From Porphyridium purpureum (taxonomy: Eukaryota), in contig VRMN01000008.1 in assembly GCA_008690995.1 (NCBI GenBank), positions 558,001-622,000 of the forward strand: a stretch of DNA of 64,000 bases. The letters are read 5' to 3'. Below the pieces are notes generated by a model. It did no database searches. It had not been told where the DNA came from and saw only the letters and a program-made list of their open reading frames with translations. Positions 9,633 to 47,830 of the stretch are shown in pieces. Every line of letters begins with the position of its first letter. The stretch's first letter is position 1. A program made the position numbers and the translations under genes.

Positions 9633-12600
9633 TCAGACGACGCACCAACCATGGCGTTGCTTTTGGAACGAGTCGACTGCGAGATTCTTCGTCAAACCGT
9701 CTGCAAGATTGTCTTTGCTGTTCACGTGCACGAAGTCTGCCAGGCCGTCCTTGGACACTTCGTTCAGCCATTTCAGGCTGATTTTCTGCATCTTGTGAAG
9801 ATGCAACATCTTGTCGCTCCATCCCTTGTTGATCGCGTTTAGCGCGGTCTCATTGTCGACATACATGGCCACCTTTGGCCATGCATTGTGCCATTCTTCG
9901 ATAAACACGCCCAGCGGAAAGACACGATACTGCACTGCTGTATGTGCAGCGATCAGTTCCGCCTCGGCGGTTGAGGTCGCGGTCCGGCGTTGCCGCCCAC
10001 TTGACCAGTCCACAAGGTGTCTCGTATTCTTACCAACAAAGAAAGTGCACACGCCGCTAGTCGACCTCTCTGCGCTGAAGTCTGCGTCAGTATAACAAGA
10101 TACAGACACAGGCAAGGCCCTGCCGGCACCCGAAAGAGGTGGCACGCGAAACACCAACACCGCATCGGCACTGCCCTGCAGGTACCGCATGATGTCGTTC
10201 AGGCCCTTTTCGGCTTCTTCACCCCAGCGATCCGTGCAGCGCGCTACCGTACCAACTGCGAATGCCAGATCTGGCCTGGTTGTCCGAACCAGCCACAAAA
10301 TACGCCCCAAGGTGCGTCTCACGCTCTTGTCACAGACCTCGCCATCTCTGTCGGGCTCAGGCTTACAAGACATCGGAGTCTTTCGCGCCTGCCTCTCTTG
10401 ACCGTCTGCTAGCATATGCCGTGCATACTCTCGTGAACTCATCACCCAGGCACCGTCCATGTCTTTGTCGACATAGAACCCGATGCCCAGGAACCGCACA
10501 GGGTTTTCTTTTGTCGCTTCGCGCATGTATTCAACCGCGCGGGTGATGGAGAACTCCTTTTTCATCTCCGCAACCGCCTCCCGTATTGCCCCACTGTCAC
10601 CGAAAACCGCCCCATCATCAACGTATAGGACTGTCCATTCCGTCTTACCCAGACGCTTTCTCCAGTATACGTTCTTATCTGAGGCGGATTCTTTCCAACC
10701 CAGACCTTCAAGTCTTGACCGTGCGTGAGCTCCAAAGTCGCTTCCGCTGCGTGGCAAGCCATACAGCGCCATGGGCAGCCTGACGACGGGCCTCTCCATG
10801 GCTTCGAGCTTTGACGACAGACTGGACGGTATGCAACCTCTCAACCAGCGAGTAAGACCGGCTAATTCGACGAATGTCGGAGGACCCCCGAGGGGCGCGT
10901 GTACGTATGCGTTGTCCACGTCGAAGAACGCAGCGTCAGCGTGTTCTCCGTGCTCCAACAGCGCTGCGCTTAATGCGGCCCTGATGGCTACTAAACCAGG
11001 CGGCTTCTCCCAATCAAATGGGTTCACAACCAGGGTTCCGGTTGCGTCTCTAACCACGCACCCTTGACACACAAGTCGGCACTTGTGTTTCCACGCGCTG
11101 GGCCCTAGTTCGGCATTTTTGATTCCGAACACGGCCTTCAGCTTCACAAACTGTGCGTGCGGCGTTCGCGTCGCCGTTCTGCGCTCGACCGCTTTCTCCA
11201 GCGGAAGCGCGCCGACGCTTCTCAACGCGGTCAACTCGCGGACAAAAGCATCGCGACCGGCACTCGAGGCCATGGCACTCTTGGATTCGATCACCTGCGT
11301 TACCAGCAGCTCTTGAACTAAGGCCGTCGCTCCGGCAAGAGGCACGCTGACCTTCTCTGCCCGCGCCGACACCCCTTTTTCCGCAACTTCTACGAACTTC
11401 ACCCTCGCGCGCCGCAAGGCCCCGCTCCTCCCGCGCCTGTGTTCGCCAAGACCTTGGGCTTGTGAGCCGAGCAATCCGAGCGCCTGCGCTTTCGAGCGCA
11501 CGTCTTTCGCTGTTTTACCAGCCAAGGCGGCCTTACTCTCTTTGATAATTTGCGACCACTTTGGACCCAGTCGTGTGAAGCCGCCCGAAATAGCCGCAAT
11601 TTGCTCGCTGCTCCACGAGCCCTTTCGCGATCGACCGTCTACTGTCGCGAGCGGCCCCGTCGGAGGCGCTTCTGTTCCGTTTGCACGTACGCATTCTTTG
11701 AAACCTGTTTCAATCTCATTACTTTTCTCTCTTGGGTCGGCCGGCGTCTCGGTTTCCGAGGTCTCGCCGGTCTCGTCGCTCTTATCATTCCTACCGCTTC
11801 CAGGGTACTGCTGCCCCTCGTCGTCAGCAACTGGTTTAGGGTCCGGCGGGCGGGCGAATTCTTCTTCAACGGGCCTGAGCTGTTTTCTTACGACGGGATA
11901 CTTTTCTTTGAGCAGTTTCCATTCTTGTACCCATCGCGCCGCTGCCGGCCTCATATCTGAAACAGGGATCACCAGGCAATTCAGTCGTTGTTTGATGACT
12001 GCTGATTCTGGTATCCGAAAACCGACCACGATTGCGACAGAGCCCTTCGGTTCATTCTTGTCGGAAGCCTCGTCGTAAACTACGACGCCCCGGCCAAACG
12101 CAGGCAGCTCCAATTTCCATTTAGTATTGAATCGTTTCTCGTACGCGGTGGCACCGCCTCCGCGCCCAGCCCAAACGAGATTTCGAGCATCCGCCCAATA
12201 CCGAGCCGCGAAGCAGAACCATGACGATGGCAACCCGGACTGGATCAGAAGCGCCCTCACCGTCGCATTCATGTCCCTGTGAAGCCTCTCTTGACTGGCA
12301 TGCGTGTTTGAACGCCTCGCTATGCCCTTTTCGTGGGCAACCAGGTGGTCTCGGAGCATGTCTTCGAAAACACCTCCAAATTCTCCGCCGCCATCGCTTT
12401 TCACCAGCCGAGGCCAACCGCGGCCCCGCTGTATCTCTCGAAACGCGAACGAGGCCGTGTCGGCGAGTTTATTCCTCAGGCCCGTCACAGAGACCCAGCC
12501 CGTTCCGATGTCTTTGTGTACCAGAACCCATCTCGTCCCATCCACACCAACCGAGGAGGGGTCCACGAGATCAATGGAGACGGCCTCATTAAAGCCGATG

Positions 12601-14225
12601 ATTGCATTGGAGTCACTCTCTTTGCGACGCACCGCGCGCACTCTCTGTATTTTGCCCAGGGCACAAATCCCACAATCTTCCTTCGCAGGCATATGCAAAA
12701 GGTCGTGGTCTAGAACCCTCACCGGCTCTGTGGCTCTAATTGGCTCATTGGGCTTCTCATTGATTTTCTCCGCATCCGTGCTGAGTAGTTCCATGCCTCC
12801 CACGGACAAATGCGCCTTCTGCGCCCTCAGCCAGTCCAGGCCCACTATGAGCTCGTGACGCGCTCTGTGTACCACCGCGGACAACTTTGCATCCCGAGCC
12901 CCATGCATTCTCAACGTCAGGCGCGCGGTCCCTTCGGGCCTGCACATGGTACCATCCGCCAAGCGAACTCCTCCCACGGCAGCGCGCCGGTCCACCGCCA
13001 CACCAATTTTCTCACAGAAAGCGAGCGAAGCATATGTGTTCGTCGCGCCTGTATCAAACACTGCGTCGACTTGGTGACCATTCACCCACATTTTTCTCTT
13101 CACAAGCCTCTCGACTTTTGGTCTGGTGCTCGCAGTGAGTAGTTCCAGCTCAGCCGCCTGTGCGGCGAGCTCCGGGCAATCCTTTTTCCAATGCCCTATG
13201 CGTTTGCAGTTGGCGCATTGATCCTTTTTCAGACCATCTCTCCTCCCGCTGTCCCGAGCCTTCCACTTCTTTCGACCACTCTTTCTTTTACCGCCGCTGC
13301 CAGCACCTACGCTTTTCCCGCCGCGCTCAGCGGAGCCCAGCTCCATGGGAGCCGGTCCGTCCCCGTAGGGCGTCTGCCCTTTCTTGGCAGTCCGGGCGCG
13401 TTCCGGGTGCATGATGGCATCGATCTCCGAAGCTACGCGGATAACTTCTTCCAAGCTGGATGTGCCCTTAAGTTCGGTTTGCACCCTAATGTCCTTGTCA
13501 AGCCCTCGCTTGTACTTGTCGAACAATTCAGACTCTGTGGCGTCTTCAATGCGCAGACAGAGCGAGGAGAAAGTATTTGTATACTCTTCCACGCTCGTGC
13601 CATTCTGCTCCAACGCGAACAGCTCATCTCTAGCCCGAGCGCCTGGGTTCACCGGGGCGAACCGCATCTCGAGCGCGGCTAGAAATGCTTCAACCGTGAA
13701 CGGCTGCTCCCTCAGGCGAATCCACCACAACTGCGCGTCATCCGTCAGGAACCCAGCGAGGTTTCGAACGACCCTCTTTTCGGCTGCGTCGTCCCAAGAT
13801 TCGCCAACCGCCGCGACTTCGTCCTTGTACGGCTCAACCACTCGGTCGCGAGCCGCCGAAATCCACGTCAGGATCTTTACTAGGTCTCTTTTCCCGTCAT
13901 ACGCCGGCATACGTGCAGGTTCAAGCAACTTTCGCCGCTGATGAACCACCTGCCCCGCGCCCGCGGACGCCAAAGCCGATCGCGCTGCTCTTTCGTGCGC
14001 CAAATCGCTCTCCAGACCCTCAATGCGCTGCTGTGCCATGCGTAAGTCGGCGGATAATTCCGCTCTCACCCTGGCCATCAACATGTCAAACTCGGTCGGC
14101 GATGGACCAGCCTGTGCATTGCCTTGCGTACCTCCACCCTGCTGCAGAGGTTGTGCTTCCAACGATTGCTGTCTCGCTGCCATAATTGCGCGCAGACGTG
14201 ACTGCTCCTGCTCACGGTCGTCCAT
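9633..14225 (-). CDS. Gag-PR-IN-(Myb/SANT-like)-RT-RNase H polyprotein
   Basis: CCHC knuckle CANCKRIGHWKKDC; protease FDTGA; HHCC HDLLH..CGIC; DDE (SIDL, KSDGGGEF, QER); Copia RT (KCRLVCQG, DVDNAY, LYGL, YVDD); RNase H (YTDADF, STAEAE, VDNE, NLADGLTK). Confidence 0.95.
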   Translation of the reverse strand: MDDREQEQSRLRAIMAARQQSLEAQPLQQGGGTQGNAQAGPSPTEFDMLMARVRAELSADLRMAQQRIEGLESDLAHERAARSALASAGAGQVVHQRRKLLEPARMPAYDGKRDLVKILTWISAARDRVVEPYKDEVAAVGESWDDAAEKRVVRNLAGFLTDDAQLWWIRLREQPFTVEAFLAALEMRFAPVNPGARARDELFALEQNGTSVEEYTNTFSSLCLRIEDATESELFDKYKRGLDKDIRVQTELKGTSSLEEVIRVASEIDAIMHPERARTAKKGQTPYGDGPAPMELGSAERGGKSVGAGSGGKRKSGRKKWKARDSGRRDGLKKDQCANCKRIGHWKKDCPELAAQAAELELLTASTRPKVERLVKRKMWVNGHQVDAVFDTGATNTYASLAFCEKIGVAVDRRAAVGGVRLADGTMCRPEGTARLTLRMHGARDAKLSAVVHRARHELIVGLDWLRAQKAHLSVGGMELLSTDAEKINEKPNEPIRATEPVRVLDHDLLHMPAKEDCGICALGKIQRVRAVRRKESDSNAIIGFNEAVSIDLVDPSSVGVDGTRWVLVHKDIGTGWVSVTGLRNKLADTASFAFREIQRGRGWPRLVKSDGGGEFGGVFEDMLRDHLVAHEKGIARRSNTHASQERLHRDMNATVRALLIQSGLPSSWFCFAARYWADARNLVWAGRGGGATAYEKRFNTKWKLELPAFGRGVVVYDEASDKNEPKGSVAIVVGFRIPESAVIKQRLNCLVIPVSDMRPAAARWVQEWKLLKEKYPVVRKQLRPVEEEFARPPDPKPVADDEGQQYPGSGRNDKSDETGETSETETPADPREKSNEIETGFKECVRANGTEAPPTGPLATVDGRSRKGSWSSEQIAAISGGFTRLGPKWSQIIKESKAALAGKTAKDVRSKAQALGLLGSQAQGLGEHRRGRSGALRRARVKFVEVAEKGVSARAEKVSVPLAGATALVQELLVTQVIESKSAMASSAGRDAFVRELTALRSVGALPLEKAVERRTATRTPHAQFVKLKAVFGIKNAELGPSAWKHKCRLVCQGCVVRDATGTLVVNPFDWEKPPGLVAIRAALSAALLEHGEHADAAFFDVDNAYVHAPLGGPPTFVELAGLTRWLRGCIPSSLSSKLEAMERPVVRLPMALYGLPRSGSDFGAHARSRLEGLGWKESASDKNVYWRKRLGKTEWTVLYVDDGAVFGDSGAIREAVAEMKKEFSITRAVEYMREATKENPVRFLGIGFYVDKDMDGAWVMSSREYARHMLADGQERQARKTPMSCKPEPDRDGEVCDKSVRRTLGRILWLVRTTRPDLAFAVGTVARCTDRWGEEAEKGLNDIMRYLQGSADAVLVFRVPPLSGAGRALPVSVSCYTDADFSAERSTSGVCTFFVGKNTRHLVDWSSGRQRRTATSTAEAELIAAHTAVQYRVFPLGVFIEEWHNAWPKVAMYVDNETALNAINKGWSDKMLHLHKMQKISLKWLNEVSKDGLADFVHVNSKDNLADGLTKNLAVDSFQKQRHGWCVV

Positions 14226-18858: not shown

Positions 18859-19083
18859 CGGCCCGCTGCAACCGGAAGCGTTCGTTGCCGAAAGAGAGAA
18901 GGAAGGGCTGAGCATTGTTCGACTACGGCTGTGGGGCGACAAATGGTCCAGTGTCGCGGTCTGCGTGCATATCGCTCATTTGGAGGGGAAGCATGCGTGC
19001 GAATTTTCCGAATTTTCTCCTATGCTCAACCGCGCGCATTCCTTTTCACATTTTTTTTTTTTTTAATTCATGTCATTCTGGCG

Positions 19084-22000
19084 CTACCGAGGCTGCCTAG
19101 CAACTCGGCGTGCAGGCTTCATGGACACGATCGAGGTCGCTCCCGGAGTCTTGCGCGAATGCCGACCAGAAGCTGCATCGTCCGGACCGAGTGAGGCCGA
19201 GTGGCCCGCAGAAAGTCCCCGATACCCACTCACTGAGGCACCTGAATGCATGATCCGCTTTGCGCCATGGGGAGCGACGGCGCTCAGGCTCTGCCTCCGT
19301 GTGGAGGTGGACGTGTTCGCCTGGTACCGTGAGACTCCGGACGACGCCGCTTGTACTTTCTCCTTCTCTCGGTCTGCTTCTGCATCGGGAGCAAAGTGGA
19401 CGGTTCGTCTTTCCTTCATAGGCTGCGCCGAGGAGTGGATTACAGCCTCATTGGTACGATCGCTCAGTGGCATAAGCCTGCGGAGCAGCTGTGGCTGTGT
19501 CTGCTGTGGCTGTGTCTGCTGTTGCGGCTGCGGTTGCTGTGCACCTGCTGCTGCAGGTATCATGACCGCGAATTGAGAGGTTGTTGTGCGAGATCTCGCC
19601 AACTCCAGATCCACTCGCAGCTGTCTATTCTTCTCTTGTAATTCCAAAACGACCACTTCCAAGAGCGTGTCCGGCGTGCTTCTCGCTTGGTGCTGATGCT
19701 CTCGAGATGTGGTGTTTTTCTCAAGATCCTCGACGCGGGTACGGAGCACTACCAGCTCCTGCAAATCTTTGTTATGCCGTTCGCGGACTTGATCGAGCTC
19801 CTCCTCGAGGCGCGCCCGTTCATCAGTCGCACAGTCTTTTGCCTGCAGCATTTCCTGGCGGAATTTTTCCTTTTCGCGCTCAGCATCTTCGACACGGAGC
19901 TGCAGAGCGCTACATGCTTCAGTCAGTTTGGCATGTCGTTCGCTCAAAGTCTTCTCACGCGCTTTGGCGGCCTGAATCTCACCCTGAGCATCGTTCAATA
20001 ATTTGGTTGCCTTGACAAGTTCTGCGGCATCATGAACTGCTGAGCTACTTCGCTTTGAAGCCTTGCCGAGCTCTACTTTGGAAACTCGACTCGCCAGCAT
20101 CAAGCTCGATACGCTTTCAGAACTATCCTGCTCGGCTGGACTTACATTAACAAACATTAGCGTCTTAGAGTCACCACTGAGGGAGTCTTGTAAGAGAAAC
20201 GTGAGCTTGGAGTTCCGGAACGGTACGTGCTGAGCTTTGTTCACAAGTGCCGAAAAAACATCTGCGAGCGCAGATAGCGACTTGTTGATGTGCTGCGCCT
20301 CTTTGAGCCTCTCGCCGCTGGCTTGAGAGCGCGACACACGCTCGGAACCGGCCAGGTCGACCATATTAAGCTTGCCAGTGGTGCGCGCCCCAGATACGCG
20401 ATTGATCGATTCTACCTCGACGCTCAGAATAAGATGGGAGCGAGATGACCGCTCATTCATCGCAGTCTTGGCACTGCTTCGATTTTGCGCCGCACCATTC
20501 ATGATGTCCCACACCTGCTCGACGCTGTAGACATCAAGCCACGTGAGGTTGGCCGCATACACGCCATCGGACCCGAGTTTAAGGTCTACCTTGTTTGCGT
20601 TGGCACTGAAATTGCCATCTGGATCTGAAATGAGGTCGCGAAGGTGCTCATTGTAAATTTCGAGCATCGACACCTTGATGCTCGTGTCGAAAACCTTGTC
20701 TCGTTCCTCGCTCCTTGCAAAGAGCTCATCCAGTGCACGGTAGTTCACGCCACGCTCGTCGCCGGTGCCGGACATGGTGTGCGTCTTGCCCGAGCCCGTT
20801 TGACCGTACGCGAAAATGCACACGTTATAGCCGTCCAGAACGCTCGTCACTAAATCTGATGTCGCGCGATACACGGTTTCTTGTCCGTCTTGAGGACCGA
20901 ACACGCGATCAAACTCGAACGATTTGCCGTTCAGCAAAATTTGCGTCTGTTCAGAAAGATCTGGATGTGCGAGGCTGCTGCCGCTGTTGTTGCTGGCCGC
21001 AGAAACCCCATCTGGCGAATAGATGCGCACGCAGTTGACTCCCTCTGACTCTTTGATGGGACGGACACGACAAAACACGCGAATATTGCCGCGCAAGTTT
21101 TGAAGTTCGTTAAAGATGCGGCGACGCTCAGTATGTTCTCGCTTCCATCGCTCATGTGCATGGCCGAGGTCCAACTTTAGGGCATTGCGTTCCGCCGTCA
21201 TCTCACATAGCGACTCACCCACCTGCTGGTACTGCGCGATGAGGCGCCTGTTTTCATCAAACACAGTTTGCAATTCGTGGTGTATGTCACGGAACGCGTG
21301 CAGCTGCTTGTGTAGAAGTTCTACTTTTGCGTGCAACATTTCAGATTGTTGTTGTTGTTGCTGCTGCACACTTGAGACCGGCTGGTCAGGCTTGGCGGAA
21401 TCACTCATGACAAGAGGATCTATTCCAACGTGGCATTTTGCTCTGGGCTGTGATAGAAGCATGCCTTGCTCCTCCGTACAAACACCTATTTCGCGGAGCG
21501 AAGGTTTGGTGATAAGCTGAGATTGTAAGTGCTCCACGAAAGCGCCGCTCTGCTCGAGCTGCGCATGTGCATGCACAAGTTGCTCTTCCACTTCTCGAAT
21601 GCGAACCATTGCGGCTGCGACCTCGTCCCTCTTGATCCAGAGCTCCGTCTCAAGCTCGCCTCTCTCGCGTTCGTTGGACCGCTTGAGCCCTGCCACCTGC
21701 TCGTCGAGCTCTGACATTCGCATCTCGCGCTCCTTGACCAGCGCACGCGTGACCACGAGCGCCTTTTCGAGCTTTTCCGTGTTCTCAATCAGCTTTTGTG
21801 TTTGTACTGCTTGCAGCAGGTGGTCAGTCTGATGGACAGTTGACTCTTGATGTCGCATGGCCATCTCTAGTCTTAATGGCTGTGCCGGCGTCTGGAATGG
21901 CGATGCCTTTGCCTTTGTATGAGATTGAAATCCAGTTTCACTCTCTGTTCTGCAGTCGTCAAGATGAAGCGGCTGATGCCGGGTCGGTGGGGTCGGTGTC

Positions 22001-23337
22001 ACAAGAAAGTCGGATCCTGAGGGCGCAGCAGTCAAACTGGCACCTCGCATCGCTGACAGTTGTGATACAGATTCGTTGTCAAGGCCTCGAGATGCTGAAT
22101 TCATTATCCGGTTTCGTCTCAGCGAGTCGTGGCGCATTGGCGTCGCGCGCCATACGTCTGTGACGAGCATTGGTTTTGCGTCTATTAATGACGAGATTGG
22201 CTCCGTTTTTCCCGGACTGCTGGAGGGAATCTCCAAGAATCTTGCCTCGCCGGCGTTCCAGCATATTCTTTTGGTCAGCTCGTCAACCGTGAAGAACTTG
22301 TACTCGAGGCGCGGCGTCGGATTGGCGTCAGATACCGGAATGCGGTCAATTTCCACTTCGAGCTGCCACTGCCCGCGCCATCCGCGGGTTTGCTCTTCGA
22401 CCCGGAACATTCGCAAGGCCTTGGTAGGATCAAATGCGCCTAGCTCGGGGGAGCTGCCGCTTACGTACATACACACATCTTCCTTGGTGAAGAACTGTAT
22501 CTGAAACTGAATTCGCACACGCTGGCGCACAAATTGTACCGAGCTGGGCTCGTCTGTGTTGCCTTGTTCAGGGTTGGTCGATCCAATATCCTCTTCCATA
22601 AGAACGGCGCAGGGCAGCTTGAAGTCTGCGCCAAACATGATGGATGACCGGCGCCTGGCGACCCCACGCCCAAGACCCACGCCACCTTTTGGGCGCAGCA
22701 CGGCCTCGTTGCGCGTCTCGACATTGAGCCATGTGCTACAAAAGAAGCACCATGTGCGGTTCAGAGTGGTATCCTCTACCATGACGCGCTCAAGCTTCCA
22801 CGCGTCGTACACGCCGTGCCCATCGTGCCGCATTTTGACTTTGCCCACATTACCCAGGTACTCCAGCTCGAGCGTGAATATGTCGACCTCGCCGCGCGCA
22901 AACGAGCCGCGCTGCGCCGGCGCAAGCTCAAGCTCTTCTGTTTGTCTTTGGTCGCCATATAATGTCATATACACCGCACCCTGCGTGCCACCGAATTCCA
23001 CATCACCGGTCAGTACGCTGATTCGATACACATGGCGCTTTTGACGCTGATGCGCATTCGAATGCCGCCTTTCATCGCTATGACTCAATGTCTGCAAATC
23101 CGCAAGCGGCCTGCGCTTCTCCCCATTCTGGTTCACAGACGCCACCGCAGAGCCATACATCGCCAACGCGTCCGATACCGCTGAGGAAGTCGCCAATGGG
23201 ACGTCCTGATTCTCATCGACTCCACCACCATCTCTTCTTCTTCTTCTACTGCCGCCGCCGCTGCTGCTGCTGCTGCAGTTCAGATTCTCATGGCTGCCAA
23301 CGCTGAAATCGAGTCGCGCAGACCCATCGTCCATCAT
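19084..23337 (-). CDS. Kinesin-14 with N-terminal PLAT/LH2 and CBM20 domains
   Basis: Kinesin-14 neck ERRRIFNELQNLRGNIRVFCRVRP; P-loop GQTGSGKT; NERSSRSH; DLAGSER; HVPFRNSKLT; PLAT about 22690-23034; CBM20 about 22147-22518; flanking coiled coils. Confidence 0.9.
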   Translation of the reverse strand: MMDDGSARLDFSVGSHENLNCSSSSSGGGSRRRRRDGGGVDENQDVPLATSSAVSDALAMYGSAVASVNQNGEKRRPLADLQTLSHSDERRHSNAHQRQKRHVYRISVLTGDVEFGGTQGAVYMTLYGDQRQTEELELAPAQRGSFARGEVDIFTLELEYLGNVGKVKMRHDGHGVYDAWKLERVMVEDTTLNRTWCFFCSTWLNVETRNEAVLRPKGGVGLGRGVARRRSSIMFGADFKLPCAVLMEEDIGSTNPEQGNTDEPSSVQFVRQRVRIQFQIQFFTKEDVCMYVSGSSPELGAFDPTKALRMFRVEEQTRGWRGQWQLEVEIDRIPVSDANPTPRLEYKFFTVDELTKRICWNAGEARFLEIPSSSPGKTEPISSLIDAKPMLVTDVWRATPMRHDSLRRNRIMNSASRGLDNESVSQLSAMRGASLTAAPSGSDFLVTPTPPTRHQPLHLDDCRTESETGFQSHTKAKASPFQTPAQPLRLEMAMRHQESTVHQTDHLLQAVQTQKLIENTEKLEKALVVTRALVKEREMRMSELDEQVAGLKRSNERERGELETELWIKRDEVAAAMVRIREVEEQLVHAHAQLEQSGAFVEHLQSQLITKPSLREIGVCTEEQGMLLSQPRAKCHVGIDPLVMSDSAKPDQPVSSVQQQQQQQSEMLHAKVELLHKQLHAFRDIHHELQTVFDENRRLIAQYQQVGESLCEMTAERNALKLDLGHAHERWKREHTERRRIFNELQNLRGNIRVFCRVRPIKESEGVNCVRIYSPDGVSAASNNSGSSLAHPDLSEQTQILLNGKSFEFDRVFGPQDGQETVYRATSDLVTSVLDGYNVCIFAYGQTGSGKTHTMSGTGDERGVNYRALDELFARSEERDKVFDTSIKVSMLEIYNEHLRDLISDPDGNFSANANKVDLKLGSDGVYAANLTWLDVYSVEQVWDIMNGAAQNRSSAKTAMNERSSRSHLILSVEVESINRVSGARTTGKLNMVDLAGSERVSRSQASGERLKEAQHINKSLSALADVFSALVNKAQHVPFRNSKLTFLLQDSLSGDSKTLMFVNVSPAEQDSSESVSSLMLASRVSKVELGKASKRSSSAVHDAAELVKATKLLNDAQGEIQAAKAREKTLSERHAKLTEACSALQLRVEDAEREKEKFRQEMLQAKDCATDERARLEEELDQVRERHNKDLQELVVLRTRVEDLEKNTTSREHQHQARSTPDTLLEVVVLELQEKNRQLRVDLELARSRTTTSQFAVMIPAAAGAQQPQPQQQTQPQQTQPQLLRRLMPLSDRTNEAVIHSSAQPMKERRTVHFAPDAEADREKEKVQAASSGVSRYQANTSTSTRRQSLSAVAPHGAKRIMHSGASVSGYRGLSAGHSASLGPDDAASGRHSRKTPGATSIVSMKPARRVARQPR

Positions 23338-23812: not shown

Positions 23813-23878
23813 ATATCGAGTGTTCCATGAGTACTACTGTTATCCGCCAGCCCCGCGGATACCTAGTCTTCACTGGAT

Positions 23879-23953
23879 CCTTGCTGTGGCCTTTCTGTGG
23901 CCTTGCTGTGGCCTTGCTGTGGCCTTGCTGTGGCCTTGCTGTGGCCTTGCTGG
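23879..23953 (+). repeat. 11-bp minisatellite (CCTTGCTGTGG), about 6.7 copies
   Basis: Directly visible tandem units, one variant CCTTTCTGTGG. Confidence 0.95.
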
Positions 23954-24512
23954 AACCTTTCTGGTGCACTGTCATTTTTTCTCACAGTGCTACCCGGCGA
24001 GCTGGAGAACACGGGGCGACAGTCTATATAAAGGCGTGGAGACCCGCGAGCAGGCTCGGGGACAGAAAGGAAGAAGAGAGAGAGGTAGCGAAAGGGAGAG
24101 AAGAAGGAGAGGGAAAGTAAAAGGAAAAGGAGGTTCATAACAACTACGTGTGTTTGCTGCGAGCGTGTAGACGAGCGAGCGCCTCCAGCCTTAAGCTGTT
24201 GCTGTTTGCGGTACCCTTTGGGCATCGTGACGAAAGATAGATGATAGTACCGGCGAACTGCTCGCGTAGAGTAAAGGTAGCAATTGGTACGCAGAAGTCT
24301 CCTTTACGGACGGATTTGTTTGCTGTTTTGATTTGAAATCCCCTTAAGGAAGGGAGAGAGACGGAGTGACGAGGTCTACGGAGTGGAGTGAGCTGGCTTA
24401 TATAGGCTGAGCTGACAAAAGCCTACATATTCAATACAGGGTGGAAGCACGTTGTGAGTAGCAGCGCCGCGCTGGCACATTGCAAAAACGGCTCACTAAC
24501 GACTCATATGAC

Positions 24513-24790
24513 TGCTGTGTACTACACCCGCAGCCACTACAACCCCTCTCTCACCTACAGGCACCCGCCCGGATCGAACCCCGACACCAACGGCACACCA
24601 ACCTCTCCTCGCACTTCGGTACCTCCTTTACTTTTCGTTTAGCTCGGGCCGCACGGCGGCGTGGATTATATACTGCCGCAAAGCCCTGGATCTAACTCAG
24701 TGGTGGGTTTGGATGGGGTTTTGGAGGGTGGACTGTACTATGGAGTACAGGTGCTACATGTGTACAGTGCATGGGGTGTACAGCATAGCA
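24513..24790 (-). repeat. 3' LTR of the Gypsy element
   Basis: Direct repeat of 30913-31190 (offset 6400); TATATAA on the minus strand at 24666-24672. Confidence 0.95.
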
Positions 24791-24803
24791 CATCTCCCCC
24801 ACC
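24791..24803 (-). other. Polypurine tract of the Gypsy element
   Basis: Minus strand GGTGGGGGAGATG abuts the 3' LTR. Confidence 0.8.
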
Positions 24804-25379
24804 GCCTCAACCGCTTGTGCGCGCTCGGGGACCGGGAAGAGAGGAAAGGGAGGCTGGCTAGCCCGGAGGAAAACCACGCGGGAAACCGGGCAAAGGGGTC
24901 GCGGAAAACGACCGCCGGCCAGCCCCAAACAAGCAAAAAATATTGTGAACGACGGAAAACCCATGCGACCCGGGTGTACGCGGCGGCGTCTTTGTACCTC
25001 TTTTCCGTGAGTTTTCGGTTTTCTGGTGCCGACTCCAGACGAGCACATTCCGGTGATCCAAGGTTCCGAGATAGAGGTGCAGGCTCAAGCAACACTCAAG
25101 AGGAGTTGATTGAAGCCTTTTCCCGCGAGGGAGGGCGCTTGCGGAAACCTCGGCGATATGCAACATTTGCCGACCCACCATGAACAGAAATTCCTGATTT
25201 GCGGCCAAACGACGCGGCGAAAGTGCGCGAAATGCAATATTGTAACCTAGATGAGGCCCACGAAGCCAGTCATCACCAAAGCAGAGCTTCTCTCGCCCTG
25301 GAACCTCCAGACACTCGTTGCTCATCCGTTGACACCGCCTGCCTCTCAACACCATATCCTCACTGTACCCACCCTGTGA

Positions 25380-25535
25380 GCCGATACGCCGATACGCCGA
25401 TACGCCGATACGCCGATACGGATAAACGGATAAACGGATAAACGGATAAACGGATAAACGGATAAACGGATAAACGGATAAACGGATAAACGGATAAACG
25501 GATAAACGGATAAACGGATAAACGGATAAACGGAT
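25380..25535 (+). repeat. Compound octamer array (GCCGATAC)x5 + (GGATAAAC)x14 in the Gypsy 3' UTR
   Basis: Directly counted tandem units. Confidence 0.95.
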
Positions 25536-25632
25536 GAGCCTCCGCCTTTCTCACAGTCGAAGGTCGGGAAGGATAGAGAGGCAGCGCGAAAGGAGGCCGA
25601 GGCTCTTGCCACACGCCGGCGGCCCGGACCGA

Positions 25633-28600
25633 CTATAGAAAGCTCTCGCCCGACGTGGATCGCAATGCAGTGCCGCGGTGCAAGCTGCCGCGGTTGAACG
25701 CCCACACAAGGGCCGGCGGCAGGGCAGAGGAACTTTCCCACGTCCAGTCCTTCTTCCTTGCCCCCTTCCAAGCCACAAGATACTCGGCCCCGTCGCTCCG
25801 TTCGCGCCTGGCTTTCAGACCTGACACCTCAACGATGTCACCGTCGGCGTTTCCCAGGCTGGTCGAGCGCAATGTATCGTTGCTCAGTAGCGCTCGGTCC
25901 ACTCTCTTCAGCCGTCGGCGATGCACGAAGAATTCTTTGCCGTCATGCGTCTTGAGCCATGCGCGATGCTCGTCAGCACGCTCAACTTCAAAAGGGCCTA
26001 CCCAAGGGTCCGCCAGCTTTCGGCCCTCCCTGCCCAGCGGCGGCTTCCAAACGAACACACAGTCCCCCGGTTCAACGTCAACAATTCGACATGACGCGTT
26101 AAGCTCTCGACGTCGGGCGTCCCGGGTGGCATCATTTTCAACTACTGCGTTGTGCAAGGCCTCGAGCCTGTTGCGCAACAGAATCACAAAGGCGTCCTCC
26201 TTTCTTGCGCTGTCTTGTGGCGCTACTTCCCCTTCGGCGGCCGGGTTGAAGGGTCCCAGCCATGAATTGGCCTCTCGTCCGAACATGAGCTCGTAAGGCG
26301 TCCTCTGCGTCGTGCTGTGTCTAGTCTGGTTGAACGCGGCCACACAGGCAGGCAACCACAAATCCCAATCGTCCTCCGTGACCCACGAAGAAAGCATGTC
26401 GCAGAGTGTCCTGTTAAAGCGTTCGACCGCCCCGTTGGCTTGTGGGTTGTACGCTGTCGTAAACAGCTTTCTAACGCGCAGCATCTTGCATAACTGGCGT
26501 AGAACATCGGCTCGGAAACAGGGCCCGTTGTCGCTCAGAAGAGCTTCCGGTAGGCCAAAGATTGCAGCCCAACGATCCAAAAAAGCCTCGGCAATGGTCT
26601 CTGCCCGCTCGTCTCGCACACATATTGCTATGGTGAACCGAGTGAAAAGGTCGCTCACTACCAGGATTTTTGAATATCCAGTGCTTGTTCTCGGCGTTAC
26701 CGTTAAAACGTCCGCAGCAACGACCTCGAACCGCCGGGTAACGACCCGCTTTCCCATGCGGTGGCTTGTGACAGGGGTCGGTGAGCCCTTTCGCGCGGCG
26801 CAAGTTCTACATTGCTTTACGAACTCCAAGACGTCTTGCAGCCAGCCAGGCCACCAAAACTCCGCGTCGGATATACGTGCCGCCGTCTTGGACACTCCGA
26901 AATGCCCGCTGAAAGGTGCTGAGTGGTAGACATCTAAAATACTGCCCACTAGTCCATCAGGGACTACCTTGCGCGGTTTGTCTTTCAGCGCGGCCCACGC
27001 AAGTCCACTTTCGTCCAGATAGTACTCCGGATAGGAATATACTCGTGGGGACTTTTGCAATGCCGCGAGCTCTTTCGATAGCAGCTCGTCCTCCCTGTAC
27101 GCTGCCTTGAGCCTCTCCGGAGATGGGAGCTCGTAGCCCACGGCTTGACCAATCGCGTGCGGATCATCTTCATCTGTCGGTACTGCAGAATCCTCTGCGA
27201 CGGGATCTCGTCGCGCACGCGTGCGCACTGCGTTCAGTTCGAGACGTGACAGTGCGTCCGGCACTCGATTCAAGCGGCCTTTAACATGCTCGATGGTAAA
27301 CGAAAAGTCCTGAATTGTCAGTGCCCAGCGCGCCAGCCTTCCTCTTGGCTCTTTCATGGACAGGAGCCAACGGAGAGGTTCATGGTCAGTGCGAATGCGT
27401 ACGGTTGTGCCGAAAACATAGTGTCGTACCTTTTTGAGACACCAAACTACTGCAAGGCACTCCAGCTCGGTGACCGTATAATTTTGCTCCGCCGACGTCA
27501 AAGTCCGCGACAAAAAAGAGATTGGCGCAAGCTTCCCGTCCGGCATCTCCTGATACAACGCACCGCCCAGTCCTATCTGAGAGGCGTCGGTGTCGAGAAC
27601 CTTTGGCGCGTTCGGATCCGCCAACACCAGCATCACTTTGTCCGACGTGAGCACCTCTTTGAATCCGTCGAAAGCGCAGCGCGCGTCTTCCCCAAAGCGT
27701 GCCTGCCAGCCGGCGCACTCTAGATCTGTATTGCGGTGTGCCTTCTTTGCATTGACGTCCAAGCCATCCAGCGCTCTCCGGAGCGGCGCCGCGCGATCCG
27801 AGAACCTGGGTATGAAGTCCCTGAACCAATTCACAAGCCCTAAGAAACGCAGCAGCTCTGTTGGGCCCTTAGGGTAAGGCCACTTGAGAATGGCTGCCGT
27901 ACTTTTTCCCCCCGGCCGAATGCGGCCTTCTTCCACTTCATGTCCCAGGAAACTGAGCCTTGCCGTAGCGAATTTGCACTTTTGCAGGGAAAATGTCATG
28001 TTCTCTTCCTGGAACTTGCTTAGCACTACGTCTAGGACCTCCAAATGTTTTTCTATCGTTTTGGTCCCTGTCAACATATCGTCTAGGTACATCAGGATGT
28101 GTTTCCATCGAAGCGACCCAAGTATCGTGTTCACAAGTCTCTGGAAGGTAGCGGGCGAGTTTCGGAGGCCCTGTGCAAGGACTGTGTAGCGGAACAGTCC
28201 CTCCGCCGTTATCATACCGGTGAAGTCCCGCGAGGACTCCGCGAGGGGAACTTGGAAGAAACCGTCAGCCAGGTCCATCACAGAGAAGACTCCACACGGG
28301 AGGAAGCGTCCCATCCAATCTAAGCATTCGCGCACGTCAGGGATTGGGTATCTATCTGGAACGGTGTGGCTGTTCAATTGGCGGAAATCCGTAGTCAGCC
28401 GCCACTTACCGTTTGGCTTTCGAATGATAACGTTCGCGCTGGCATATGGGCCCGAGCAAGGCTCGAGGATGCCCAAAGATAATAAACGCTGGACTAGCGT
28501 GCTCTCGGCCTCTCTTTCAACTTCAGACAATCTACGCAGGCGGGCCGGGGTAAGACGTGCGCCTGGATCAATAGCAATGGAGTGCTCAGTAGACCGTGTG

Positions 28601-29430
28601 CGACCTGGACGGTCCCGGAACACCCTCCAGTGCTTGAGCAACACCGCCCGAAGACCACTTTGGTGAAGCACGTCTACGTGGCTGAGGTCTACATCCATAA
28701 TGCGAGCACGCGTCTCCTCTTCGTCCTCTTGCATTACGTTTGGACTCCCGAGCTTACTTGCGTCTCTTTGCTCTACCCCAACGCAATCAATTAAGTTCAG
28801 TGATTTTGCAGGCGCTCCCTCTAAGAGGCGAATCGTGGCGCCGTCTTTCATTTCGAGCTCGCCCTTGCCAAAGGAAAGCGCGTTAGCATTAGCAACCCAG
28901 AAATCCCATCCCAGGATAAGATCTTCGATAAGATCTTCGGCAACTAATGCGCGCACCTGGTACATTGACTGGCCAATTTGTAGCTGAAGCTCTGATGCTC
29001 CGACAATACCGAGGGAGCTTCCGCCTGCAGTTCGACACTCCTGCGCCACGTCCTGTATTACGGCTCCTAGAGAACTGACCCACTTTGCTCGCGCATATAC
29101 ACCGGCAATCCCTACAGCACCCGTGTCGGCAAGAGCATCTACGGCAGATCCCGAGACCTTGACAGGCGTGCGACCCGATCGCATGACACGTGCTTTGGCC
29201 AACACGCGCACGTACGGGACTCTGCCAGAAGCAGATTCCACCAGATGGTTTAAGACTTCCAAGGTTGGACTCGCTCGCAGGATTCGCTTCGGCCCTAGAG
29301 CTAGATCATCAATCACGGAACTTGTTCGAATTTCGGTGTTCTCTTCACCTACGCTGGGCTTGCGATATCCCAACGCTTCCATGGCCTCATCCACGGCCCT
29401 CCCATTCCACGCTACCACGCGTCCGCGTAG
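25633..29430 (-). CDS. Gypsy Pol (PR-RT-RNase H-IN-chromodomain), in frame with gag behind a UGA
   Basis: LADTGA; DLADGFFQV; YLDD; DTDAS...ELECLAV; H..GH..C..C; SDNG; ERFNRTL; GPF; chromodomain EYLVAWKG..DWTWE (about 25693-25836). Confidence 0.93.
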   Translation of the reverse strand, partial: LRGRVVAWNGRAVDEAMEALGYRKPSVGEENTEIRTSSVIDDLALGPKRILRASPTLEVLNHLVESASGRVPYVRVLAKARVMRSGRTPVKVSGSAVDALADTGAVGIAGVYARAKWVSSLGAVIQDVAQECRTAGGSSLGIVGASELQLQIGQSMYQVRALVAEDLIEDLILGWDFWVANANALSFGKGELEMKDGATIRLLEGAPAKSLNLIDCVGVEQRDASKLGSPNVMQEDEEETRARIMDVDLSHVDVLHQSGLRAVLLKHWRVFRDRPGRTRSTEHSIAIDPGARLTPARLRRLSEVEREAESTLVQRLLSLGILEPCSGPYASANVIIRKPNGKWRLTTDFRQLNSHTVPDRYPIPDVRECLDWMGRFLPCGVFSVMDLADGFFQVPLAESSRDFTGMITAEGLFRYTVLAQGLRNSPATFQRLVNTILGSLRWKHILMYLDDMLTGTKTIEKHLEVLDVVLSKFQEENMTFSLQKCKFATARLSFLGHEVEEGRIRPGGKSTAAILKWPYPKGPTELLRFLGLVNWFRDFIPRFSDRAAPLRRALDGLDVNAKKAHRNTDLECAGWQARFGEDARCAFDGFKEVLTSDKVMLVLADPNAPKVLDTDASQIGLGGALYQEMPDGKLAPISFLSRTLTSAEQNYTVTELECLAVVWCLKKVRHYVFGTTVRIRTDHEPLRWLLSMKEPRGRLARWALTIQDFSFTIEHVKGRLNRVPDALSRLELNAVRTRARRDPVAEDSAVPTDEDDPHAIGQAVGYELPSPERLKAAYREDELLSKELAALQKSPRVYSYPEYYLDESGLAWAALKDKPRKVVPDGLVGSILDVYHSAPFSGHFGVSKTAARISDAEFWWPGWLQDVLEFVKQCRTCAARKGSPTPVTSHRMGKRVVTRRFEVVAADVLTVTPRTSTGYSKILVVSDLFTRFTIAICVRDERAETIAEAFLDRWAAIFGLPEALLSDNGPCFRADVLRQLCKMLRVRKLFTTAYNPQANGAVERFNRTLCDMLSSWVTEDDWDLWLPACVAAFNQTRHSTTQRTPYELMFGREANSWLGPFNPAAEGEVAPQDSARKEDAFVILLRNRLEALHNAVVENDATRDARRRELNASCRIVDVEPGDCVFVWKPPLGREGRKLADPWVGPFEVERADEHRAWLKTHDGKEFFVHRRRLKRVDRALLSNDTLRSTSLGNADGDIVEVSGLKARRERSDGAEYLVAWKGARKKDWTWESSSALPPALVWAFNRGSLHRGTALRSTSGESFL

Positions 29431-30642
29431 TCACTCGCTCGCAGGCGCCGCCGAGGTAGCTCTGCGCACCGGTGCTGGCGCCAGGCAGTCTCCGGCATAG
29501 TGTCCTGTCCCTTGGCAGCGGCGACACACCACTCGATCCGAGTTGGCCATTAAACGGTTCCCCCCGATTCCGGGCACGCCCAAAACGGCTGCCACCCGGT
29601 CCGCCAGGAACTCCACTTCGATCAACTTTTGATCCTCTGTCTCCTTCGCCGGGTCAGGAGGTACACCCCCAAGATTTGGTTCGGAATCATGAAGTACATT
29701 GACCGCAGCCCCCGGTGGACGGAAAACCGGTCTCCCTTGGGCAAAGCTTCGTCCCTTCTCCAGTGTCGACCCGTAGTTTTTCTCCAACGGTAAAATCATT
29801 CCGAAGAATGTTTCTGTGGCAGCGTGGAGACGACCCATCTGTTGAATATCTCGAGGAAGTCCTCGAACAAAGTCGCTCTTCATCGACGCCTCGGATTTCC
29901 CAAGAGCAGCGCCGAGCTCGTACACGGCGCGGTGATAGTTTGCCACTGACTCGCCCTTCGTCCATTTCCTCTCGCAGTACTCTTGTTCCACAGATTCCAA
30001 AAGCTGAGGAGACCAGAAAACCGAACGCGCCCACGCCCAACGCTGCTGAGCCGAGTACTCCGTCGCAAGCTCGCCGTTCTTCTCGGCAGTGCGATAAACC
30101 TGCTCAGCCGAATCCGCAAAAGCTAGAACCACAAACTTTGCCGTGAGGTCGGCTGGAATGTGGCGACATGCTTCCACCCAGGTCAAATACGTGGTTTCGA
30201 ACCTGAGATCACGCGCGTGACGGATGCGACAGTCTTTCATCTCGAGAATGACCGACCTCTTCATTTCTTGCTCGAGTTTGATGAGCCGGAGCTCCTCAGT
30301 GGACATTGTCAACAGGCTCGAACCATCAGAGACCGCCAGTGCAGTCCCGATTCTGGACGCGCGGCTGGGCTCCCCCGGTGGCTCGGCACCATGTTCGGCG
30401 GATCTTGGCCGAGAACCGCGATCCTGCGCGTCCGCAATCGTCGGTTCGTCCAGCTGCGGTCCGAGACGCTGAAAGATCATCTCCATTCTCTGACGTATCT
30501 GGTCAATGCTTTCGCGCAGCTGCTCCTGGCCGGATGCGATCAGCTCTACACGTCCCTGGAGTGCCGCCACATCAGCCGTGACGCTCGCTACAGTTGGACG
30601 CCCGGCCATTTCCCCCAAGATATCCGACAGGCGTCCGGACAT
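29431..30642 (-). CDS. Gypsy Gag
   Basis: 403 aa; N-terminal coiled coil, GESVANY...FVRGLP capsid-like motif, CCHC knuckle CRRCQGTGHYAGDC. Confidence 0.88.
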   Translation of the reverse strand: MSGRLSDILGEMAGRPTVASVTADVAALQGRVELIASGQEQLRESIDQIRQRMEMIFQRLGPQLDEPTIADAQDRGSRPRSAEHGAEPPGEPSRASRIGTALAVSDGSSLLTMSTEELRLIKLEQEMKRSVILEMKDCRIRHARDLRFETTYLTWVEACRHIPADLTAKFVVLAFADSAEQVYRTAEKNGELATEYSAQQRWAWARSVFWSPQLLESVEQEYCERKWTKGESVANYHRAVYELGAALGKSEASMKSDFVRGLPRDIQQMGRLHAATETFFGMILPLEKNYGSTLEKGRSFAQGRPVFRPPGAAVNVLHDSEPNLGGVPPDPAKETEDQKLIEVEFLADRVAAVLGVPGIGGNRLMANSDRVVCRRCQGTGHYAGDCLAPAPVRRATSAAPASE

Positions 30643-30912
30643 AAATCAGATAATCAGTCAGTCCCTAGAAATCAAACGCAAAAGTGTGCAATGCGTGTGC
30701 TGAAGCCACCCGGCTTCCCACACAAGTTCAAAAAACCAAACAGAACTATCTTTTCAAAGCCACCCGACTTCAAACGAGACACCAGAGCCACCCGACCTGG
30801 CACCTCTCCCCCACGTCGCCCTGGTTCCGGGCCACCCGACCACCAACCAGACCGGCCCGCGCGCTCCCACAAGAAATTACTCAAGAATGGGGCAACGCTA
30901 ATTCTAGAATTA

Positions 30913-31190
30913 TGCTGTGTACTACACCCGCAGCCACTACAACCCCTCTCTCACCTACAGGCACCCGCCCGGATCGAACCCCGACACCAACGGCACACCA
31001 ACCTCTCCTCGCACTTCGGTACCTCCTTTACTTTTCGTTTAGCTCGGGCCGCACGGCGGCGTGGATTATATACTGCCGCAAAGCCCTGGATCTAACTCAG
31101 TGGTGGGTTTGGATGGGGTTTTGGAGGGTGGACTGTACTATGGAGTACAGGTGCTACATGTGTACAGTGCATGGGGTGTACAGCATAGCA
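30913..31190 (-). repeat. 5' LTR of the Gypsy element
   Basis: Direct repeat of 24513-24790. Confidence 0.95.
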
Positions 31191-42743: not shown

Positions 42744-45700
42744 TCAAGACAAGCTGCACCGAGGAAAGGATTTCTTTGCTTCCCCGGACTCTGGAGTTGA
42801 CCCTCGCAAAGTCGCAAGCGCAAGCCCTTGTGCACTGGATTCAGCTTGCTTTGAGTTCTTCCCCTCAGCATCTGACGGCTGGACATTCCCGTCCAGAGGA
42901 TCGTCCTCGGCTTTCTGTTGGCTTTCTCCCGCGTTTTGATGGTCCTGTGCGCCGTTCCTTTCTTCCAGTGCGGCAGCTGACTTGTCTTGCGCGCCATCCG
43001 CGTCAAAATCCGAAGCGTACCACCCAAAAAACGTTTTTGCCATGTCAAGCACATGATCCGCGGCTGTTGTTTCCACCTCGGCGAGCCACTCCCTTGCATC
43101 CTCCACAGCGCCTCTGATCTGTTCATAGTCCTTGTGTGAAGCACTCGGCAGCTTACCCTCAATGGCGCACTCCGCCAGACTGAATTCGGCCAGTTCATTC
43201 CGTGACGCTTGGAGCCATGCTCCTTGGTCATGACCAAAAAATTGCAGCCAAATCCTGCCTGTCTTTGGGTGTATCCACTGTCTGCTCTTCACGTTCGGTA
43301 GCACGACACCTGGCCACCATGGAAATCCACGCACCTTTCCCCATGCCACGCTACCCAGCTTGACCTTACCATCAAGAACCCTTGACACAGGTGCACACGT
43401 CCCTGCATTGGATGAATGGGACGGAGAATTGCGTGAGTGATTGCGGCTTGCTCCACCCTTTTCAGCAGCATCCCTCTCCACTATCTCGCCCTGGGAACTC
43501 TTCTCTAATGCGTGAGCCCCATCCTTCCCGTCACTCGAAGCGTCGAGCACAGCTTCCAGACGGCTTTCGATCTCGGAAGGAGCAAGCTTAGGGACAGGTG
43601 CTTCAATGAATGTCGGGACTATCCTACTGGTCGTCTCTTCAAACGGGCTTTGAGTGCTTGCTCTGCTCTGCAATGCGATGCGCGCGCTCTTGGGCGAATC
43701 CCTGCTTGGATTCTTGCCAATCACAAGTTTAGCATTCTTGTCGTTAGATCGCGCCAATTCGTCTCCACGCACAACTTCAGCATTTATCGCTTCAGGAATA
43801 GTTTCGGTCTCTTCCTCCTTTGGCCTCGACGGCGCTTTATCCGAGTCGCGCTCTTCGTCCGACGATGTCTCCCTTCCGTGTTCGTTATCAGAATCGGTGT
43901 CCTGTGTGCAGTTGTTGTGCTGAGAGAAGCGCATGAAAAGCGCGAGTTTGAGCTTCACCGGAATGCATTTCTCCGTACGATCGAGCGAGATGCAGTGACT
44001 CACCCGCTGCAAAGCCTTGAGCAAGCGCGTCAACAATCCGCGCTGCTTGGGGCTAAGCTCGCCTACGAAGGAAAGGTCGATGAGAAGCGTGAGCGCAGTG
44101 TCAAGCTCTCTTTCCATTTGCCTGTACTCGGACGGGTCACCTGTGAATCTACCAACTGCAATGTCCACGCAACCAACAAGGTACGCGAGCAGCTCGGATC
44201 GTGGCGCCTGAGCGAGTGCGTGCTCTGCGCGCTTTCCGTGCACTTGCAGACTCAGCAATTCGAGAATAAGATTTCGCCGAATCGTCCATGCGCCTGAAAC
44301 ATTTCTGAGCAGAAACGAAATCGTGTCCATTGCGACACCATTCACGACCAATGCATCTGCTTCCTCAAAGTGGACGGGAGGATACAACAGGTTGTGCACC
44401 GCGTGCAGCAGACTTTCGTGCTCAGTCCATCGCGGCAACGTACGCAGAAGAAGCGTCGCCACCCAGTGCGCAATGCCGGACACCAGAGCGTGATGCGTGC
44501 GCATCTGGTTCAAGGCTACGACCAAAAACACCAGCCAAAGGGCGTCCTGTACAAGATCGGTCATTACTGTATGGTCTTCAAGTGGACAATGTGCAATCAA
44601 GTATGCCAGACGCAGCGAAGATAGCACCATCCAGCGGCCCACGCGAATTCCACATCGCTCACTAAACGCTCGATTCCCGCCCGCCTCAGCGTGCACTGAG
44701 CTATCCATGACAAGAAGCTCGGAGAGGTATTCACGCGCACTTTCACCGACACCGATTGACATGCCAAGGAGCGCCGTCCAGACACTTTTCGACGAGCCAG
44801 AAGCGCCCTTCAGAAGATCAAATGTGTAAGAGGCGCTTCGATCTGGCACGACTCCCTTTCTGCCGCTTGGAAGCGGCGCGCACTGGCCGTGTGAGAAGAG
44901 AAGGCCCAATAAATAATAATATTTGCCCGCTGCCGTTTCTTGTTCGATATCCGAGTCATGGAATGCGCGCGTGGCATGCCAGAATGCACAGTCTGCTTCG
45001 TTGCTGGTCAAGGACATTTCGGCATACATGAAAAAAACAGACTTTGGTCGATCGCAAATATTGGACCAAGGGGTGGCCATTCCAGAGCGAACTGACCGGG
45101 CAGTACATGTCAGGTCCACCCACTGCTCCAGCAATTTGCGCACGAGGGTCTGCTTTGCAATATCTAATTCTTCTTCTCCGAGCTGCTCACTGGCCTGCGA
45201 ATTCAGAAGCACGTGGCGAGCGCCATCGTTCGGCTCCCAGCTTTCTCGGGACTCACGCAAGCCGTCTTGATCACTACCAGCGCCAATGCTCTTCAAAATA
45301 TTCTCAAAAGTCCCTCCTTGGTCTGCAGTAGAATCGGCGATCTGCCGGCGTAATTCAGCAATCTGCTGCTGCTTTTCTACTTTCACCTTGCGCTCCGCCA
45401 AAAATGCGTCCACATTTGACTCACGACGTACCATCTCGTTCCGCCGGCGCGCCACGACGCCACTAGGTACGCCGAGCGCTGCCACCCGTTCATCCATCCA
45501 AGAGTCAGCCGGAGCAGATGTGCTGTCCGTGCCCGTCAAAGTACCGTTTTCTTTCCGCTTTTCGATGCGTGTGAGAAGGTCACGTTCCTCTTCCGAGCCG
45601 AGCTCGCTGCTTGATGCCGAGCTTGACTGGCTTGGCTCCGGGCATGGCTCGGAGGTGCTGAGGACTACATCAGACACACGTCGTGATTTGCGTCCAGTTT

Positions 45701-46562: not shown

Positions 46563-46713
46563 GTGTGCCGCCTGAGTCTACATGCGCAAAGTAGACTGCC
46601 GCAACGTCGTCCGGATTGTCTTCAACGTTTTGCACAAGCGCATTGATGGACGCACAGCCGAGCTGCAGCAAACGTGCGCGAGTAAGCGGGGTGGTCTCGT
46701 GAGCACACTCGCC

Positions 46714-47721: not shown

Positions 47722-47830
47722 TCCATCAGCTCGGGGTGTCCGATTATTATGAAAATTATAAACGTGTCGGGAACCAACCAGGGCACGCAAACGATCCAAT
47801 GTTGCATTTTTCGTCACAACGTTACTCAAA

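Follow-up and report, generated by a model that had tools for sequence, protein, structure and literature searches.

Plant kinesin-14s of the KCH type have an N-terminal cargo domain and, further in, a motor with a coiled coil on either side, as in OsKCH2, a processive minus-end motor whose central motor domain lies between coiled coils CC1 and CC2 (PMC5852081, in part; papers so marked are cited from a portion of their text). The red alga Cyanidioschyzon merolae has only five kinesins, among them CMT097C (BAM83113.1), tabulated in 2006 as a 1160-residue internal-motor kinesin-14 with the features "CC, LH2" and no starch module (PMC1434745, Table 2); the main text of that paper nowhere mentions starch or a carbohydrate-binding module (CBM). 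Land-plant malectin kinesin-14s (KIN-14R type) likewise carry a carbohydrate-binding-type module before the motor, and the CBM20 fold is found outside amylolytic enzymes in STBD1/genethonin-1 (a glycogen receptor for autophagy), laforin and GDE5, none of which is a motor. Here we analyse a gene from a 64,000-nucleotide stretch of Porphyridium purpureum DNA (hereafter the window; assembly GCA_008690995.1, contig VRMN01000008.1, positions 558,001–622,000). Its single open reading frame (ORF; window positions 19084–23337, minus strand, 4254 bases) comprises 1417 codons with zero internal stops, at exactly the coordinates that a preceding sequence-only reading gave, and encodes in order a PLAT domain, a CBM20 domain, a coiled coil, a kinesin-14 motor, and a second coiled coil. 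We place at about 0.45, somewhat below even, the probability that this member of a red algal kinesin-14 subfamily, a motor likely directed toward microtubule minus ends, tethers alpha-glucan of the cytosol, whether glycogen or starch, near a membrane.

The five-part order named by the sequence-only reading agrees with Pfam, and its coordinates were right to within a few codons. The PLAT/LH2 domain (aa 102–217; 22687–23034, minus strand as for all features of this gene) matches its profile over aa 104–209 with 62.2 bits (cut-off 23; E 9.8e-17), and the CBM20 domain (aa 273–397; 22147–22521) over aa 274–376 with 33.1 bits (curated cut-off 23.3; E 5e-08). The ESM Atlas gave the CBM20 region a feature score of 0.96, with CBM_20 only in 29 of 30 matches. 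A PDB sequence search with this CBM20 alone returned nothing at E 10, and the binding sites were therefore mapped via the Galdieria ortholog onto 1ac0. When modelled with a 35-row alignment, the N-terminal 316 residues reached a predicted local distance difference test score (pLDDT) of 81 and a predicted template-modelling score (pTM) of 0.79, the single-sequence fold having a pLDDT of 34. Both folds were predicted, and both match solved domains. Model residues 8–124 align with the PLAT domains of lipoxygenase, lipase and Rab6IP1 at VIA Z 14.6–16.2 (2fnq: Z 16.2, root-mean-square deviation [rmsd] 2.2, 113 aligned), the closest solved relatives being the PLAT domains of polycystin-1 and lipoxygenase; Foldseek gave the same PLAT result and had CGTases among its matches. 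Residues 175–304 align with seven CBM20-bearing chains at Z 10.0–11.2 (rmsd 2.1–4.0, 93–112 aligned; STBD1, laforin and GDE5 at 10.4–10.7), while the remaining carbohydrate modules and unrelated rows score Z ≤7 against this part of the model. For CBM20, a profile match above the curated cut-off thus coincides with the predicted beta-sandwich of starch-binding domains, as profile and predicted fold coincide for PLAT/LH2. Packing was judged from the pTM alone; so high a value in a model with a disordered linker of 40 residues suggests a joint placement of PLAT and CBM20. PLAT domains bind lipid, Ca2+ or a partner protein.

The motor domain (aa 753–1092; 20062–21081) matches Pfam Kinesin over aa 757–1088 with 347 bits and Microtub_bd over aa 732–903; its nucleotide-binding motifs at aa 845, 961 and 994 (P-loop, switch I and switch II) are intact. 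The coiled-coil neck immediately before it (aa 735–760) ends in GNIRV, a hallmark of kinesin-14s; among solved structures the family profile best matches KIFC3, KCBP, Kar3 and Ncd, and the named sequence matches are KIN-14 and KIFC3. By a home-made, crude heptad score rather than a calibrated predictor, the motor is internal, lying between CC1 (aa 509–730, as segments of about 509–610 and 654–730 ending in the neck; 21082–21813) and CC2 (aa ∼1102–1253; 19579–20034), after which follows a low-complexity C-terminal tail rich in Gln, Ser and Arg (19087–19578). This is the layout of OsKCH2 (PMC5852081, in part). In place of the actin-binding calponin-homology (CH) domain of plant KCH kinesins, however, PLAT and CBM20 stand here; Pfam matched neither a CH domain nor malectin (PF11721) in the protein. 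Minus-end-directed motility is likely, as a prediction from neck and family and by analogy with OsKCH2.

The combination of PLAT, CBM20 and kinesin, which the sequence-only reading had proposed looking for across Rhodophyta, proved to be shared within a red clade from Cyanidiophyceae through florideophytes. Among the best 120 of 7856 matches to the motor, the query counted in, CBM20 is present in 39 and CBM20 together with PLAT in 25, with named members from Galdieria, Cyanidium, Cyanidioschyzon, Rhodosorus, Agarophyton, Gracilaria, Gracilariopsis and Eucheuma. Trees were built from chosen subsets of the matches, a quick one of 70 rows and a careful one of 36. A red clade of 37 rows that includes every named red algal member received a value of 99 in the quick tree (Shimodaira–Hasegawa-like approximate likelihood ratio test [SH-aLRT]), and 11 of its rows received 100/99 in the careful one; the Porphyridium protein branches outside both the Cyanidiophyceae and the florideophyte-containing groups. 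With Pfam or with profiles built from the family, the latter being circular for the rows that went into them, CBM20 was detected in 36 and PLAT in 32 of the 37 red rows, and in the five rows without PLAT, Chondrus included, the protein begins within or beyond the cassette, probably because the gene model is clipped. Entries from Agarophyton, Eucheuma, Gracilaria and Rhodosorus that hold all three domains are transcriptome-derived. CMT097C is an ortholog in the same clade with the same domain order; it differs from the Porphyridium protein in a complete starch-binding site 1, a short linker, and a shorter stalk. A second paralog of Rhodosorus marinus (P0158, P0160) has PLAT and CBM20 domains missed by Pfam but scored by the family profiles. 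The red clade is sister to plant KCH kinesins with weak, unstarred values of 87/81 in the careful tree, a placement that the quick tree does not resolve.

Across 25 other red sequences (alignment A1), identity amounts to 70% in the motor, 46% in PLAT, 25% in the stalk, and 62% and 38% in the first and second halves of CBM20, respectively. Judged by these alignments, the CBM20 domain is under constraint everywhere in the red family, and the persistence of the layout throughout red algae makes a functional fusion more credible. No free-standing PLAT-CBM20 protein appeared among the best 150 of 2088 matches to the N-terminal 316 residues in a representative search; multi-PLAT proteins dominate there, and the four CBM20 carriers (the query, P0111, P0118, P0148) are each a kinesin. 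A word-based search with the same residues found the query alone among 1482 candidates, and is judged to be of low sensitivity because the motor search recovered the family. Neither PLAT nor CBM20 was detected in the two glaucophyte-type and two Rhodelphis-type kinesin-14s that surfaced among the motor matches, which is a statement about those rows rather than a genome survey.

In Aspergillus niger numbering, site 1 of CBM20 consists of Trp543, Lys578 and Trp590; in site 2 it is chiefly Trp563 that is kept (PMC9920598, in part). Binding-site residues were compared over 39 red and 11 cryptophyte-type rows. At site 1 the Porphyridium protein has F302, K347 and W360, followed by A365 in place of Asn. 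The change of the first Trp to Phe had been noticed in the sequence-only reading and is borne out, no variant being listed at this codon (22432–22434) among the runs compared, a listing that leaves out 12 weaker rows; the loss of the Asn had escaped that reading. All seven Cyanidiophyceae rows have the full site 1 with Trp, Lys, Trp and Asn, and Trp/Lys/Trp is present in two of four Rhodosorus rows, those of the main paralog, with Trp/Arg/Phe in the other. The first Trp is kept in 26 of the 27 other reds, the named ones of which are florideophytes. On the site-2 side, the equivalent of Trp563 (W324 here) is kept in 39/39 red rows, and a second aromatic residue four positions before it is likewise universal (34 Trp, 5 Phe; W320 here), so that a WRGxW-type motif is common to reds; cryptophyte rows lack it. 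The family-specific W320 may substitute for the missing site-2 aromatics.

Kinesin-14s with a glucan-type module form two further clades. One, called cryptophyte because Hanusia phi and Baffinella frigidus belong to it (P0244, P0214, P0292–P0299, P0375), likewise has a CBM20 in front of the motor but differs from the Porphyridium protein in lacking PLAT and the WRGxW motif and in forming a clade apart from the reds; forcing the two together costs 18.6 log-likelihood units, with a p value of 0.049 in the approximately unbiased test (p-AU), a marginal rejection for a group named after the tree was seen. Three metagenomic kinesin-14s (P0216, P0225, P0231) carry an N-terminal AMPK-type glycogen module (PF16561) and form their own clade (98/99). 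Malectin kinesin-14s, which supply many of the best non-red matches among the 120 listed, differ in their module (PF11721), in having no PLAT, and in grouping apart, together with Chara and KIN-14S (100/100). The repeated pairing of glucan module and kinesin-14 favours a real glucan role as far as sequence comparison goes, separate origins being unproven.

Several observations weigh against glucan binding by the Porphyridium protein and its relatives. Site 1 is incomplete here, and Phe at its first Trp is unique to this protein among the 39 red sequences; no counterpart of the A. niger site-2 residues Tyr527 and Tyr556 occurs at the aligned positions. In the 27 other reds, the Lys is kept only once (Arg in nine) and the second Trp twice, with Phe or Tyr in 10 more within a poorly aligned loop, and the second half of the domain has the 38% identity given above. 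The seven complete Cyanidiophyceae rows represent about three genera and are not independent. Among cryptophyte CBM20-kinesins, Gln replaces the site-1 Lys in 10 of 11, and no N-terminal signal peptide is obvious by eye; cryptophyte starch sits in the periplastid space. The first half of CBM20 could, moreover, be conserved for packing on PLAT instead of glucan binding. Galdieria and Cyanidium store glycogen rather than granular starch; the storage polymer of Cyanidiophyceae is glycogen or semi-amylopectin, and that of seaweeds granular floridean starch. Because site 1 is intact mainly in Cyanidiophyceae and worn in the florideophyte-containing reds, the description of the protein as a floridean-starch granule motor is weakened: of what the sequence-only reading proposed, the domains, the single gene and the red algal origin stand, whereas the canonical site is altered in this protein and eroded in those reds. 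This erosion is not to be over-read, since CBM20s short of one site-1 residue still raised the starch-granule adsorption of a fusion enzyme (PMC9920598, in part).

Two of several possible explanations of this pattern are that glucan is still held and that CBM20 has been repurposed. In the latter case, which we consider unlikely though it survives best among the alternatives, PLAT and CBM20 would form a membrane- or protein-binding head, the motor would carry organelles or vesicles (plastid, nucleus, vacuoles, lipid droplets) in KCH-like fashion, and glucan binding would be ancestral or confined to Cyanidiophyceae. Such a change of use is consistent with a site 1 eroded in 26/27 other reds and altered here, yet with high first-half identity, and with the joint module suggested by the pTM. 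The weak affinity of the clade to KCH kinesins, a placement alike in PMC1434745 (in part), also fits, and red algal SEX4 proteins too bear CBM20 copies without binding residues (PMC8703398, in part). Against it stand the complete site in 7/7 Cyanidiophyceae, the Trp/Lys/Trp of the main Rhodosorus paralog, and, on the site-2 side, a Trp pair of the exposed type that 39/39 retain.

A basic linker just after PLAT (aa 219–232; 22642–22683) contains Arg-Arg-x-Ser (RRxS), a candidate kinase site by alignment. RRxS/T, often repeated, is found in 31 of 35 aligned linkers and is absent only from four Cyanidium/Cyanidioschyzon-type rows, in which the linker is much shorter. The motif fits the consensus of basophilic kinases and, judging from its recurrence, may be a site that switches cargo binding. 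It would also suit an improbable alternative in which CBM20 binds polyglucan filaments, namely those of the plastid- and mitochondrion-dividing (PD/MD) rings, which lie on the outer membranes facing the cytosol. PLAT would then sit on the membrane and CBM20 on the ring, and the motor, controlled by mitotic kinases, would connect the places of organelle division with spindle microtubules. A kinesin named TOP, which may be CMR497C, bears on this. The rings consist of polymerised glucose, which glycogenin-like PDR1/MDR1 produce at the outer membrane (PMC6424925, in part), and TOP, a C-terminal kinesin and Aurora substrate, sits there (PMC5398205, PMC6925296, both in part). The wording "C-terminal" (PMC5398205, in part), however, fits CMR497C better than the internal-motor CMT097C (PMC1434745, Table 2, in part); C. 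merolae, the best-studied species for these rings, lacks the RRxS linker; and no expression or localisation data were found.

Scarcely more probable than one in ten, in our estimate, is a static microtubule anchor or bundler in which CBM20 senses glucan stores and regulates the motor in the manner of the AMPK glycogen module, with no glucan transport. Many kinesin-14s are non-processive cross-linkers, and an AMPK-type module does occur in the three metagenomic kinesin-14s. The arrangement CC1–motor–CC2, in contrast, gives OsKCH2 processive transport (PMC5852081, in part), although CC2 alone is no guarantee of it.

The gene's stretch is present in 20 of the 24 sequencing runs listed (eight studies). 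Run X2 has a contig of 2701 bases that reaches from the start codon into the motor, and neither differences nor gaps are listed for it; the alignment tool passed over a short repeat close to the 5′ end. A contig of run X1 (3727 bases) spans 19070–22796, also with none listed; that these two runs derive from RNA is only a guess. X24, a raw-read RNA run of which about one fifth was read, covers the whole ORF with no joint within it, at depths of 1–4 over PLAT and CBM20 at the 5′ end and 17–48 nearer the 3′ end. No splice is indicated by the contigs of several studies that bridge the domains. The status as a single gene, for which the sequence-only reading had asked RNA evidence, holds, with thin coverage at the 5′ end. 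Differences between strains inside the ORF comprise five silent and seven changing ones, all away from binding-site residues and too few to infer selection. An artefact of assembly or gene calling, or the joining of two genes into one, is largely refuted as the source of the fusion despite the low X24 depth over PLAT/CBM20 and the guessed status of X1 and X2, given a 4254-base open frame, bridging contigs without a joint, and 24 other proteins among the 120 listed with all three domains, some of them transcriptome-derived. Over the motor region (19000–21000), first mates lie on the minus strand in a sizeable share of X24 pairs, with depths of up to 29; antisense transcription, read-through from a converging neighbour, or imperfect strandedness may account for this.

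The neighbours of the kinesin gene are unrelated housekeeping genes and retroelements, and no starch-metabolism gene is indicated among them in the 64-kb window. A solo element resembling a long terminal repeat (LTR) lies at 23838–24142, 500 bases upstream of the kinesin start codon (305 bases, TG...CA, flanked by 5-base direct repeats). An empty site is seen in X24 (five reads), X1 and X6, and ∼2000 X24 reads leave the window at the element's edge, which together mark a multi-copy, polymorphic insertion, probably in the 5′ untranslated region or promoter of the kinesin gene. An apparently complete Ty3/gypsy-type LTR retrotransposon with a chromodomain occupies 24513–31190 (pol ORF 25633–29382, upstream ORF 29431–30642); its insertion is recent, since the 278-base terminal repeats at 24513–24790 and 30913–31190 are identical. 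The 1530-aa ORF at 9633–14225 (minus strand) encodes a Ty3-type gag, zinc knuckle and protease in an odd retroelement layout, with a weak copia-type reverse transcriptase match (E 0.001, below the cut-off) and no integrase match. Two PWWP-domain genes lie close together at 42744–50635 (minus strand); in the second, a fusion adds the central and zinc-ribbon domains of TFIIS.

No description of a CBM20 kinesin was found in the literature by a search that missed the main red-algal cytoskeleton sources, the likeliest place for an earlier mention, and the portions seen of PMC7169423, PMC9714639 and PMC8888420 are silent on a PLAT-CBM20-kinesin protein. The architecture is already in databases, since JGI record P0172 was named automatically as "Kinesin motor domain/Starch binding domain/PLAT/LH2 domain". 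The cargo head is thus new to the literature searched, its LH2 half having been known since 2006 (PMC1434745) and automatic annotation existing.

Returning to a glucan-tethering motor, the N-terminal PLAT-CBM20 unit would serve as its cargo adaptor. The protein would dimerise through CC1 and, by its likeness to OsKCH2, walk toward microtubule minus ends. CBM20 would hold particles of glycogen or floridean starch through a weakened site 1 and the retained Trp pair on the site-2 side, as expected from its family, PLAT would contact the membrane, and phosphorylation of the RRxS linker could switch cargo binding. Red algae keep starch in the cytosol and have no dynein. The job in such dynein-less cells would be to position or partition storage glucan, or glucan-coated organelles. 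C. merolae has neither myosin nor dynein (PMC1434745, in part), and gene knockouts are feasible in it (bioRxiv 10.1101/2021.05.23.445365, in part).

Having few motors, red algae raise the question of how granules and organelles are positioned and distributed, and a phylum-wide motor with a glucan module offers a single testable gene. A broader and more tentative view is that a motor gripping storage polysaccharide has been kept since before the Cyanidiophyceae split off, hauling glycogen, floridean starch or polyglucan rings along microtubules, and that glucan-module kinesin-14s were built separately in cryptophytes and in a third lineage. If so, this would be a cytoskeletal motor with a carbohydrate polymer as cargo, and in seaweeds binding would have shifted from site 1 to a new Trp pair. 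If binding is real, motor and polysaccharide would be directly coupled; if not, the family would be a clear case of CBM20 put to a new use.

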